A stretch of 64,000 nt of DNA from an uncultured Actinomycetota bacterium (GCA_963696085.1 CAVOIQ010000004.1:48291-112290); one strand, 5' to 3'. Shown: positions 43,687 to 46,435, numbered from the stretch's first letter. A program made the numbers and translations. Notes: generated by a model from the sequence alone, not told the origin.

Positions 43687-43745
43687 GCGTCCATCCGCGC
43701 GGCGTTCACGGGAAGCGACCAGGTATCGCTTCGCTTGACAGGTCG

Positions 43746-43817
43746 ACGCGACGGCGGGATTCGAACCCACTGCACTTCCGGGTATGAGCCGGTGCCCGGG
43801 CCATCCGGATCGTCGCG
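43746..43817 (-). tRNA. Atypical tRNA-like element with CAT anticodon (Met-like; may be pseudo or non-canonical)
   Basis: Minus strand: acceptor CGCGACG/CGTCGCG, D arm CCGG-ATGGC-CCGG, anticodon loop CTCATAC closed by CCGG/CCGG, T arm GTGGG-TTCGAAT-CCCGC. No U8 and no encoded CCA. Confidence 0.6.
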
Positions 43818-43993
43818 GTGAAGCCAACGTAACCCGACGCTCCGACGTCGCGGATCCATGTGACAGGCCGTTGCGACGCATGACGGTCTGTGACGGCATC
43901 CGGGTTCAGCGAATCAGCGGGGCTGGCTCAAACGCACCGGCTCTCAGCAAACTCGGCGGCGGTGTCGCAGCACCCGCCTACACTTGAGAGGCC

Positions 43994-46435
43994 ATGACCG
44001 ACGCCTCCCAGCCCCTGATCGTCGGCGGCGACCGCGGACCCGAAACGCGCCCCGATGCCGACCTGCTCGAGGGCCTGAATCCACCGCAGCGCACCGCCGT
44101 CACCTATCGCGGACCCGCCCTGCTGATCGTTGCCGGCGCCGGATCGGGTAAGACCCGCGTCCTGACGCATCGCATCGCCTCCCTCCTGCGCGGACGTGAG
44201 GCATGGCCCAGCCAGATCCTCGCCATCACCTTCACCAACAAGGCCGCAGGCGAGATGCGCGAACGCGTTCAGCACCTGATCGGCGACAGCGCGCAGGGCA
44301 TGTGGATTTCGACGTTCCACTCCGCGTGCGTACGAATCCTCCGCCGTGAAGCGCAGCAGTTCGGCTTCACGAAGAGCTTCACGATCTACGACTCGGGCGA
44401 TTCGCGTGCGCTGATCAAACGGTTGGTGAAGGAGCACGAAGCGGATGCCTTCGGTCTCACGCCAGCGGGCGTGCAGAGTCGCATCTCGAAGCTGAAGAAC
44501 GAACTGGCGGATGCCGAGTCCTACGCGCGCCAGGCCAATATGTCCGACCCGGCGGAGCGCATCTTCGTCGAGATTTTCGCCGATTATCAGCGCGCGCTCC
44601 AGCGGGCGAATGCCTTCGACTTCGACGACCTCATCGCGCAGACCGTTTACCTCTTCCGCGCGTTCCCGCACGTCGCGAACGTCTATCGCCGCCGGTTTCG
44701 ACACGTCCTCGTCGACGAATACCAGGACACGAACCATGCGCAATACTCGCTGATCCACGAACTGACCCGCCCCGTCGTGGGGGAGACGGCCGAGCCGTTC
44801 GAATCCGGCGGGATGATGATCTTCGAGCCGGAGCGTGCTCCCGAACTGGACGCCGCGTCGCTCACCGTCGTCGGCGACTCCGATCAATCCATCTACGCGT
44901 TCCGCGGCGCCGACATCCGTAACATCACGGAGTTCGAACGCGACTACCCCGGCGCGAAGGTCGTGCTGCTCGAGCAGAATTACCGCTCGACGCAGAACAT
45001 CCTCTCGGCGGCGAACGCCGTGATCGGCAACAACTTCGACCGCAAAGACAAGAAGCTGTGGACCGACGTGGGAGCGGGCGACCCGATCGTCGGGTTCACC
45101 GGGTACTCGCAGCACGATGAGGCACAGTTCGTCGCGGATGAGATCGAGGCGCTGCGACGCACCGGGATGGCCTACTCGGAGATGTCGGTGTTCTACCGCA
45201 CCAACTCGCAGTCGCGGGCGCTGGAGGAGATCTTCATTCGCTCGGCCCTGCCCTACAAGATCATGGGCGGCACGAAGTTCTACGATCGCGCAGAGATCAA
45301 GGACGCGTTGGCGTACCTCGTCGCCATCTCGAACCCCGCCGACGAGATGGCGGTCCGGCGGATTCTGAACAAGCCCCGCCGCGGCATCGGCGATGTGACC
45401 GAGACGGCGATCGCCCGTTACGCCGCCGACGAGGGCATCACCTTCCGCGACGCGCTCGCGAACGCACCGTCGCTCGGCGTCGGGCAGAAGATTCAGACGG
45501 CGATCACGCGGCTCGACGCGGTGCTCGCAGAAGCCGCCGCGATCATGCTCCCCGAGTCCGGCGAGCTCGCCCCACCGACCGCCGTGGCAGAGGGACTCAC
45601 GCTGCTGCTGAATAAGAGCGGCTATCTCGAGGCGCTCCGGGCGAGCAAAGACCCGCAGGACGAAGCACGGCTGGAGAACCTCGACGAACTCGTCGCGGTG
45701 ACCCGCGAGTTCGCGCGCAACAACCCCGAAGGCACGATCCTCGACTTCCTCACCGAGGTCGCGCTCGTCTCCGACGCCGACGATCTCGAGAGCGATTCAG
45801 GCTTCGTGTCGCTGATGACGATGCACACCGCGAAAGGGCTCGAATACGATGCCGTGTTCGTCACCGGCGTCGAAGAGGACCTCATCCCGCACCGCATCTC
45901 GGCGGGCGAGCCCGGCGGACCTCAGGAAGAGCGGCGACTGTTCTATGTTGCGCTGACCCGCGCGCGCAAGCGCCTGTACCTGTCGCTTGCCATGACACGG
46001 GCGCAGTTCGGTGAAGTGACCGTGGCGATGCCCAGCCGGTTCTTGCAGGAGATTCCGCACGAGCTCATCGACTGGCGGCAGTCACCCGGCGACGTCAATT
46101 CGCGTGGCGGAATGCAGTCCCGCGCTCTCAATGCACGTCGCTCCGGTGGCTTCGGTGGGGGATCGACGAACCGATACGGTGACGATCTCGTGCCGCTCCC
46201 GCGCCGCGAGAAGAGCGGATCGATCGAGAAGTTCGCGAACCGGATTCCCGCGAAAGTACGCGACAACGGTGACATGGAATTGGCATCGGGCGACCGCATC
46301 CGCCATGACGATTTCGGCGATGGGCGCGTCGACGCCGTCACCGGCGAGGGCGCCAAGCGCGTGGCACATGTGCGTTTCGACAAGGTGGGCGCGAAGAAGC
46401 TGCTCATCAAGATCGCACCCATCCAGAAGATCTGA
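43994..46435 (+). CDS. pcrA: UvrD/PcrA SF1 helicase
   Basis: AGAGSGKT, ITFTNKAA, DEYQDTN, GDSDQSIY, NYRST, TMHTAKGLE, EERRLFYVALTRA, C-terminal Tudor-like tail. Confidence 0.97.
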   Translation: MTDASQPLIVGGDRGPETRPDADLLEGLNPPQRTAVTYRGPALLIVAGAGSGKTRVLTHRIASLLRGREAWPSQILAITFTNKAAGEMRERVQHLIGDSAQGMWISTFHSACVRILRREAQQFGFTKSFTIYDSGDSRALIKRLVKEHEADAFGLTPAGVQSRISKLKNELADAESYARQANMSDPAERIFVEIFADYQRALQRANAFDFDDLIAQTVYLFRAFPHVANVYRRRFRHVLVDEYQDTNHAQYSLIHELTRPVVGETAEPFESGGMMIFEPERAPELDAASLTVVGDSDQSIYAFRGADIRNITEFERDYPGAKVVLLEQNYRSTQNILSAANAVIGNNFDRKDKKLWTDVGAGDPIVGFTGYSQHDEAQFVADEIEALRRTGMAYSEMSVFYRTNSQSRALEEIFIRSALPYKIMGGTKFYDRAEIKDALAYLVAISNPADEMAVRRILNKPRRGIGDVTETAIARYAADEGITFRDALANAPSLGVGQKIQTAITRLDAVLAEAAAIMLPESGELAPPTAVAEGLTLLLNKSGYLEALRASKDPQDEARLENLDELVAVTREFARNNPEGTILDFLTEVALVSDADDLESDSGFVSLMTMHTAKGLEYDAVFVTGVEEDLIPHRISAGEPGGPQEERRLFYVALTRARKRLYLSLAMTRAQFGEVTVAMPSRFLQEIPHELIDWRQSPGDVNSRGGMQSRALNARRSGGFGGGSTNRYGDDLVPLPRREKSGSIEKFANRIPAKVRDNGDMELASGDRIRHDDFGDGRVDAVTGEGAKRVAHVRFDKVGAKKLLIKIAPIQKI

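Follow-up and report, generated by a model that had tools for sequence, protein, structure and literature searches.

A candidate accessory, Met-accepting tRNA(CAU) with a remodelled core, kept in most Microbacterium species

Among described accessory tRNAs, bldA of Streptomyces is a canonical tRNA-Leu(UAA) serving a codon that otherwise has no decoder, and 'tRNA-Other' of Bacillus cereus is a pseudo-tRNA with a conditional or regulatory role. Natural bacterial tRNAs with rebuilt cores are rare, and the known ones (tRNASec, tRNAPyl and the allo-tRNAs) marked special decoding or special partners and became tools for genetic-code engineering. Here we analyze a non-canonical tRNA(CAU) gene found in a 64,000-nucleotide stretch of DNA from an uncultured Actinomycetota bacterium (GCA_963696085.1, CAVOIQ010000004.1:48291-112290; this whole stretch is referred to as the window, and positions are counted from its first letter). 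Comparison across genomes puts the element far above chance and, as judged from sequence, identifies it as a real member of the tRNA gene family, inherited vertically and present in one copy, that most Microbacterium species keep. We consider it, with a probability of roughly 55%, to be an accessory tRNA that is expressed, accepts methionine and has a special or conditional use, the fourth CAU species of its genome. Like bldA and tRNA-Other, the gene would be accessory and dispensable and would have a regulated promoter of its own, so that it might act as a switch; unlike the case of bldA, the codons concerned (AUG and AUA) are already decoded, and no regulatory target is known.

43746 to 43817, minus strand: non-canonical tRNA(CAU) gene, with C1 at 43817, G72 at 43747 and the discriminator U73 at 43746
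43784 to 43786, minus strand: anticodon CAT, within the loop CUCAUAC
43811 to 43817 and 43747 to 43753, minus strand: perfect 7-bp acceptor stem, CGCGACG with CGTCGCG

When the 308-nt intergenic region harboring the element was compared by BLAST with relatives, only the tRNA-like part found matches, in 20 of 24 genomes of the genus. In the alignment, conservation sets in at C1, directly preceded by a conserved CAU, and stops at U73-CCA, which delimits a conserved unit of 76 nt between flanks that cannot be aligned. With a covariance model (R1), used both to score and to locate copies, 124 of the 151 Microbacterium species genomes scanned each yielded a single copy; among the high-quality genomes alone, 105 of 128 (82%) carry the element, and the genomes without it include complete ones (e.g., G007, of the same genus). 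Across bacteria, a scan with each species represented by one genome yielded at least 120 matching contigs, nearly all of them named Microbacterium; among the matches listed are M. testaceum, M. oxydans, M. paraoxydans, M. lacticum, M. yannicii and M. oleivorans, as well as a few other Microbacteriaceae. Compact forms are also present in Arenivirga flava and in one Microbacteriaceae isolate, and a search by pattern in 375 genomes of the order's other families turned up chance matches only. An earlier note on this DNA, made from the window sequence alone, had argued against random decay; conservation in 124 of the 151 species, together with the compensatory changes described below, bears this out, the element being intact and under selection.

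The structure was established from an alignment (A3) of 100 homologues representing 82 distinct sequences. Its best-supported form comprises 24 pairs, with 98.6% of cells paired, and compensatory changes on both sides are observed in 9 of these 24 pairs (95 cells), including the D, anticodon and T stems, so that the test of covariation among homologues suggested in the earlier note came out in favor of a cloverleaf. In the controls, no shuffle reaches these values, and sliding the partners leaves a pairing of only 40–59%. The acceptor/T-arm half of the molecule is ordinary and the D/anticodon half is rebuilt. The acceptor has 7 bp, with C1:G72 in 82 of 82 distinct sequences and G·U, A-U or G-C at 5:68; the T stem has 5 bp and a consensus T loop UUCGACU. 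Two connector nucleotides vary (A, G or U at position 8 and U, C or A at position 9). The consensus D stem has 5 bp and a 4-nt loop (YGGU); its fifth pair, 14:19, covaries (G-C, A-U, U-A, G·U), and the stem abuts the anticodon stem directly, nucleotide 26 being absent. The anticodon stem is built of 3 + 4 pairs with one bulged base between them on the 3' strand; in its upper part the top pair is G-C, G·U or A-U, and five pair types are seen at the third. The sequence of this stem evolves freely while the remainder is frozen. The anticodon loop has 7 nt (N-U-C-A-U-A-N), with UCAUA in 100 of 100 homologues, and the same invariance holds for U73, the GG of the D loop and UUCGA; position 38 varies, C being the base in 62% of the sequences. 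Across homologues the variable loop measures 3 nt; the earlier note had seen almost no variable loop in the window copy.

The element thereby combines traits of tRNAs in general (a 7-bp acceptor, a 5-bp T stem, a U54-U55-C56-R57-A58 T loop, G18G19, a 7-nt anticodon loop, U33 and a purine at 37) with a core that departs from the canonical one by having no conserved U8, no linker 26, and non-standard D and anticodon stems and variable loop, where a canonical core has a D stem of 4 bp with a loop of 7–11 nt, an anticodon stem of 5 bp and a variable loop of 4–5 nt. The initiator tRNA-fMet traits, a C1xA72 mismatch and G:C pairs in a row at 29:41, 30:40 and 31:39, are absent from the homologues, the stem reading C:G, G:C or A:U, then G:C. 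CCA is encoded in 55% of homologues vs. approximately 8 of the 44 tRNA genes of the genome. Two structural alternatives were rejected on the same alignment: (i) a fold in which the 5' strand of the D stem pairs with the 3' strand of the anticodon stem, as in the minimum-energy fold of the window copy, whose two alternative helices show zero compensatory change and have 49 broken cells across two of their base pairs, pairing being lost wherever the anticodon stem changed; and (ii) a sixth D-stem pair T9·G24, as position 9 (U/C/A) is uncompensated and G24 covaries with position 45.

Within this set the window copy is a somewhat divergent member. Read directly, it has A8, a D stem CCGG/CCGG with a 5-nt loop AUGGC, an anticodon stem CCGG/CCGG, a T stem GUGGG/CCCGC and a T loop UUCGAAU. 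The traits on which the earlier note was built (A8, the 5-nt D loop, the CTCATAC loop, the 7-bp acceptor and the TTCGAAT T loop) are all present as read, and the initiator features are absent as it said, C1:G72 being paired and three consecutive G:C pairs not there; its length of 72 nt is correct if the discriminator is counted, C1 to G72 measuring 71 nt. A one-base deletion in the D loop leaves a D stem of 4 bp and a loop of 5 nt. The extension of the anticodon arm to 7 bp with a 3-nt bulge (GCA/UGC), also proposed there, is possible in the window copy but differs from the conserved register, which gives G·U, C-G, an A/A mismatch, then a 1-nt bulge, then CCGG/CCGG. Besides this A/A mismatch at the third upper anticodon-stem pair, G·U occurs at two positions, and all four helices are intact. 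The 3' trailer after U73 reads CGA (43743-43745), so CCA is not encoded in this copy. Taken singly, the window sequence does not fold above chance (z-score of -1.39), and in its minimum-energy fold the D region pairs with the anticodon region and no cloverleaf is formed.

The closest structural parallels of this compact core are tRNAPyl and tRNASec, and the element fails the defining features of both. With tRNAPyl of the M. alvus and D. hafniense types (PMC7609411) it shares a compact core, a lengthened anticodon stem, a 3-nt variable loop, a 4–5-nt D loop, the loss of the U8:A14 interaction and the 7/5 acceptor/T arrangement; the anticodon stem of M. alvus tRNAPyl even carries an unpaired base (PMC7609411). 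It differs from tRNAPyl by a CAU rather than a CUA anticodon, by the retention of G18G19, the TΨC loop and two connector nucleotides, and by its actinobacterial host. A PylRS partner was sought and rejected, the best PylS_Cterm match in the genome scoring 20 bits vs. a cut-off of 178. With tRNASec (RF01852), its best Rfam match (20–36 bits, below the gathering score of 47), the element has in common a long D stem ending in a 4-nt loop, together with a long anticodon stem and no linker between the two stems; it has a 7/5 rather than 8/5 arrangement, no long variable arm, CAU instead of UCA and U73 instead of G73.

Among methionine tRNAs, the elongator shares with the element CAU in a 7-nt loop, U33, A37, an acceptor of 7 bp in which 1:72 is paired, a T stem of 5 bp carrying a TΨC-type loop, and G18G19, and most homologues are called tRNA-Met by ARAGORN. 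The differences are that the element is a fourth, dispensable CAU species with C1:G72, U73 and no conserved U8, and that its core is rebuilt (5-bp D stem, 7-bp bulged anticodon stem) and scores below the Rfam tRNA threshold. A survey devoted to 'extended superwobble' (PMC13092985) gives 4-bp anticodon stems for 27% of elongator tRNA-Met genes and speculates that such CAU tRNAs read AUA. The element shares with these tRNAs, as far as described there, a 4-bp helix beside the loop followed by a discontinuity, and differs by three further pairs past the bulge and by a core that is rebuilt too. In that survey and the supplements searched we found no mention of Microbacterium tRNA-Met, and no paper describing this Microbacterium tRNA was found in the literature; many public genomes probably annotate the element silently as tRNA-Met.

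The resident tRNA set makes the element a fourth CAU tRNA, dispensable in some relatives. In the assembly ARAGORN detects 44 tRNAs, of which three have CAU: the initiator (C1xA72, GGG/CCC) at position 63594 of contig C1, an apparent elongator-Met-type tRNA adjoining tRNA-Thr(GGU), and an apparently Ile2-like tRNA at C7:412232-412306 (minus strand). In Microbacterium the Ile2-like CAU tRNA has an unusual Tyr/Cys-like D arm (GGCCAAGCUGGUCAAGGC) and G1·U72, while other genera have a standard D arm. The genome holds one MetRS gene and one TilS-type gene, and neither a second MetRS nor a second TilS is present in it. Only the three canonical CAU tRNAs are found in G007 and in G109 (a sister genus); G023, G124 and G136 possess the three canonical ones plus the element or its relative. 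Recent duplication of a resident tRNA was rejected as an origin, the best identities to the 44 tRNAs being 0.68–0.73 and spread over many isotypes, and BLAST revealing no second copy in the genome.

A likely origin is instead suggested by the sister genera. Several Microbacteriaceae carry an extra CAU tRNA with the same acceptor (CGCGGCG/CGUCGCG-U73) in an ordinary cloverleaf; these include Leifsonia, Frondihabitans, Cryobacterium, Microterricola, Conyzicola, Leucobacter and Agromyces cavernae, as well as the genomes G136, G278, G042, G100, G115, G043 and G155. The ordinary versions score 54–58 bits against the Rfam tRNA model, are called tRNA-Met by ARAGORN, and have promoters with TANNNT 8–9 nt upstream, CAU before C1 and a GTCAY/GGTAAG/GCAACAY module. 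Since the acceptor and the promoter layout are shared, the compact Microbacterium form looks like a remodelled orthologue of this ordinary-cloverleaf tRNA.

The sequences that accompany the gene are the following, together with its divergent neighbor.

43826 to 43831, minus strand: -10 hexamer TACGTT (TANNNT type), ending 8 nt before C1
43840 to 43847, minus strand: '-26' box CGTCGGAG, PafBC/RecA-NDp-like, followed by 8 nt and then the -10
43860 to 43894, minus strand: upstream module of three GTCAY motifs and GCAAC (by motif count)
43712 to 43732, minus strand: hairpin GAAGCGA-N7-TCGCTTC, 7 bp, 14 nt downstream of the tRNA
43994 to 46435, plus strand: pcrA, a UvrD/PcrA helicase gene (Pfam UvrD-helicase, UvrD_C, PcrA_UvrD_tudor), the divergent neighbor

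The -10 hexamer that the earlier note had assigned to the element is supported by the homologues, 35 of 36 of which have TANNNT upstream (mostly TAGCGT or TAACGT); the distance to C1 is 8–11 nt in 27 of them, with hairpin-like insertions between in the rest. The same number, 35 of 36, retain U at -1. TANNNT is also found 7–13 nt before the 5' ends of many ordinary tRNA genes in this genome, where such short leaders are the rule. Upstream of the hexamer, CGTCGGAG lies 16 nt before the -10 and is one base off the genome consensus TGTCGGAG, with 5 of 6 core bases matching at the right spacing. A TGTCRG-type box, with its center around -26 and a TANNNT -10 following at 16 nt, is reportedly part of the RecA-NDp promoter motif put forward by Gamulin et al. 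in 2004. Descriptions of PafBC as the regulator, and of its '-26 motif', are given in PMC6789036, PMC8223512 and PMC11804915.

By a position weight matrix (PWM) built from the 20 exact TGTCRGNG-N8-TANNNT sites of the genome, the promoter of the element scores 18.6 bits and ranks 28th of 6.3 million positions. These exact sites lie upstream of recA, radA, tag, rarA, sbcD, a DnaQ-like exonuclease gene, dnaX, DUF222-HNH genes and others, the recA, radA, tag, rarA and sbcD sites validating the motif for this genome, and many have the start codon 6–7 nt past the -10 (leaderless). Genome-wide, the damage regulon is marked by (A)ATGTCGGAGG-N7-TANNNT, for example at C7:679263 (recA), C2:41825 (radA), C6:193714 (tag), C7:328647 (rarA) and C8:451516 (sbcD). 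Tandem, pafBC-like open reading frames with WYL domains (351 and 342 aa) are present at C7:241601 and C7:242593. Of the homologue promoters, 125 of which are distinct, 14 show TGTCGG exactly and at this spacing, and a further 14 show it with one mismatch, although these box-bearing promoters come from related species and are not independent events; the -26 box is missing in other Microbacterium clades and other genera. The window promoter resembles, by its sequence, the LexA-independent RecA-NDp/PafBC DNA-damage type, which suggests that the tRNA may be induced by DNA damage in this genome and in about a fifth of its relatives. The neighboring pcrA has a PafBC/RecA-NDp-like promoter of its own (TGTCGCAG-N8-TACACT, 43963-43984, plus strand; PWM rank 69 of 6.3 million), and, with this -10 ending 9 nt before the ATG at 43994, the pcrA mRNA would be nearly leaderless.

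Farther upstream, the module is specific to this tRNA gene: GTCAY occurs 3 times in 110 nt vs. 0.28 expected and 0–1 times upstream of other tRNA genes. A related module is conserved 45–75 nt before the tRNA in both compact and canonical homologues from several genera, with the motifs GTCAY, GGTAAG or GACUCAY, and GCAACAY (L001-L020, L160, L218, L251, L262). One Microbacterium clade has a CCAGG-N7-CCTGG palindrome instead of the module, and a search of the genome for a regulon sharing it, by a 46-nt PWM, gave nothing convincing. At the other end, the downstream hairpin pointed out in the earlier note is present, and its use there as evidence of a transcription unit does not stand: a terminator scan downstream of the element found no site, no U tract follows the hairpin, and the 60 nt downstream of 116 homologues fold no better than control DNA (means of -20.8 vs. 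-20.3 kcal/mol, p = 0.65). A conserved terminator or hairpin was accordingly rejected as not above background.

The element is flanked by an aldo/keto reductase gene on one side and pcrA on the other. At 10 of the 20 loci examined within the genus, pcrA is located, divergently, 0.2–8 kb from the 5' side of the tRNA; no neighboring partner gene is conserved across the species and genera examined, the flanks varying among aldo/keto reductase, arginase, beta-lactamase, LtrA, transporter and other genes. Part of this variability is due to integration at the tRNA gene, which integrases use as an attB site. In at least five species a tyrosine integrase gene with an arm-binding domain lies 35–170 nt past the 3' end, on the opposite strand. 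In M. paraoxydans EaN35-6 (L225, L209) an island of 13.2 kb is closed on its far side by a 29-bp repeat of the tRNA 3' end, and in Microbacterium sp. 1P10UE (L214, L256) a 27-bp repeat bounds an island of 80.7 kb; at both, an intact tRNA copy adjoins the tyrosine integrase gene. The window copy is unoccupied, with no island and no repeat of its 3' end in the genome, and a search of sequenced phages for a phage-borne copy or attP gave only a 37-nt match to a Salmonella phage tRNA-Met.

Overall, a true but structurally remodelled accessory tRNA is the best reading of these data, based on (i) the ARAGORN calls, 62 of approximately 103 compact homologues being plain tRNA-Met(cat), (ii) the ordinary versions in sister genera, and (iii) the invariant U33-C-A-U-A37. 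The gene also behaves like a tRNA gene in its conserved -10, its U at -1, its tRNA-gene spacing, its encoded CCA and its use as attB. The earlier note had suggested a tRNA-like non-coding RNA (decoy, regulator or unusual adaptor); the intact, non-standard geometry behind that suggestion is real, and the ARAGORN calls speak for a tRNA. That note had also named two outcomes that would count against its proposal, namely an ordinary tRNA-Met/Ile2 score or an unconserved relic: the element is conserved, and the window copy passes as an ordinary tRNA-Met with ARAGORN only at relaxed thresholds. A plausible course of events would start with transcription from the TANNNT promoter, giving a leader of 2–3 nt, continue with trimming of the 5' end by RNase P and, in the window copy, subsequent addition of CCA, and lead to charging with methionine by the single MetRS via the invariant CAU and to use as a conditional elongator. 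Methionylation is proposed because CAU is the dominant MetRS determinant in E. coli, and elongator use on account of the paired 1:72 and of a stem without the three G:C pairs of the initiator.

A number of observations weigh against an accessory methionine tRNA. Some concern the window copy itself: ARAGORN at default settings finds zero tRNAs across the whole window and calls this copy tRNA-Met(cat) only once thresholds drop to 90% (-ps90), so that the software check suggested in the earlier note gives no call or a plain tRNA-Met depending on the setting; no Rfam family reaches its gathering score, the best sub-threshold match being tRNA-Sec (20.5 bits, E = 0.14); and the model R1 gives 87.6 bits, among the lowest of the homologues (typically about 103), the copy having no 14:19 pair, C instead of U at -1 and no encoded CCA. 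In its PafBC-type box C replaces the first T, and most homologues have no such box at all. Other points apply to the family: U73 and C1:G72 are not usual Met acceptor features (U73 occurs in the Gly, Cys and Thr tRNAs of this genome); C38, according to PMC13276492, may preclude t6A37; and six to seven species have a 6-nt anticodon loop. Finally, the scaffold may be more important than the anticodon, since CAU has been lost in the Agromyces siblings and GCA variants exist elsewhere. Agromyces spp. and a metagenome-assembled genome (L171, L202, L204, L216, L264) have the same scaffold without CAU: this form keeps the acceptor, the compact D arm, the T arm, the CAU leader and a TAACAT -10 at 8 nt, its anticodon arm is a hairpin with a U/C-rich loop of 5–7 nt, and it always lies just upstream of a UPF0102/YraN gene. 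An extra GCA (Cys-type) tRNA on the same C1:G72/U73 scaffold is found at L052/L297 (G109, which holds two ordinary tRNA-Cys genes beside it) and at L227 and L235 (Microbacteriaceae VKM Ac-2854 and Ac-2855).

The 6-nt loop (G/U-UCAUA) is seen in otherwise intact genes at L159, L178, L208, L220, L252, L260 and L014 (G013), in a Microbacterium group that includes M. oleivorans and M. gawkjiense.

The 6-nt loops, the CAU-less Agromyces siblings and the stress-type promoter leave room for a decoy or regulator role, and the foremost alternative, which we regard as having perhaps one chance to the main reading's two, is a tRNA-like RNA made and processed as a tRNA that does not decode: a decoy or regulator acting on MetRS, on a tRNA-targeting enzyme or on a stress sensor, or, in a variant, an aminoacyl donor outside the ribosome. 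The remodelled core, without U8 or nucleotide 26 and with a 4-nt D loop, on which general tRNA models failed, fits such an RNA, as do the 6-nt-loop clade being otherwise intact, the Agromyces siblings retaining promoter, CAU leader and arms yet no CAU anticodon, the stress-type promoter and unusual upstream module seen here, and an anticodon stem that is free to evolve while the rest is frozen. What this explanation accounts for poorly is the invariance of U33-CAU-A37 in 100 of 100 Microbacterium homologues. Staphylococcal tRNA-Gly, a non-proteinogenic tRNA, is without the canonical T loop and GG elbow that the element retains, and here the element is unlike the known non-proteinogenic tRNAs. 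The base-paired 1:72 suits EF-Tu, no partner gene is conserved nearby, and no T-box with an AUG specifier that could sense the element occurs in the genome. The sole T-box there is the ileS one, a T-box-like element at C7:197485-197655 (plus strand; 41.7 bits, below the Rfam cut-off) directly upstream of the IleRS gene.

Considerably less probable is that the Sec/Pyl-like core serves as a handle for a dedicated, chromosomally unlinked partner, making the element a DNA-damage-inducible, special-purpose adaptor; the partner could be an amino-acid-altering enzyme, a special elongation or initiation factor, a nuclease or a sensor. If so, AUG or AUA decoding might, for example, be reprogrammed, or translation of the largely leaderless damage regulon aided, under genotoxic stress, and Agromyces would have retained only the non-decoding part of the function. 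A second tRNA of the Ile2 type, carrying TilS-made lysidine at C34, charged by IleRS and reading AUA conditionally in the manner of bldA, is slightly more doubtful still. CAU is common to Ile2 and TilS is present, and AUA is very rare (about 0.3 per 1000 codons in a sample of open reading frames with high GC3), so that regulating an AUA decoder could provide a switch. However, the genome already holds a canonical Ile2-type tRNA at C7:412232, and, where IleRS elements include A73 and A37-A38, the element carries U73 and varies at position 38 (C in 62%); its acceptor stem differs as well. That the element is a tRNA pseudogene in decay or an att-site relic, its 3' half repeatedly rewritten by integrating elements, is disfavoured and very improbable: the integrases with their 27–29-bp 3'-end repeats, the isolated 3' fragments that exist, the variable flanks and the failure of detectors on the window copy would fit it, but the 5' half, which integrating elements do not supply, equals the 3' half in invariance, compensatory changes fall in the D, anticodon and T stems, a single copy with conserved promoter and U at -1 is kept in 82% of high-quality genomes, and the window copy has neither an island nor a 3'-end repeat in its genome.

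The accessory, Met-accepting tRNA thus remains our preferred reading, and the family to which it belongs is informative in several respects. It offers, in one natural evolutionary series confined to a single bacterial family, an ordinary cloverleaf, a compact core with CAU and a compact scaffold without the anticodon, and its more than 100 natural sequence variants reveal which parts are constrained. The gene escapes the Rfam models and a large part of ARAGORN runs, so that the annotation of tRNA sets in Microbacterium is inconsistent. The gene doubles as a landing site for genomic islands, and its PafBC-type promoter, if functional, would provide a rare case of a tRNA under DNA-damage control.

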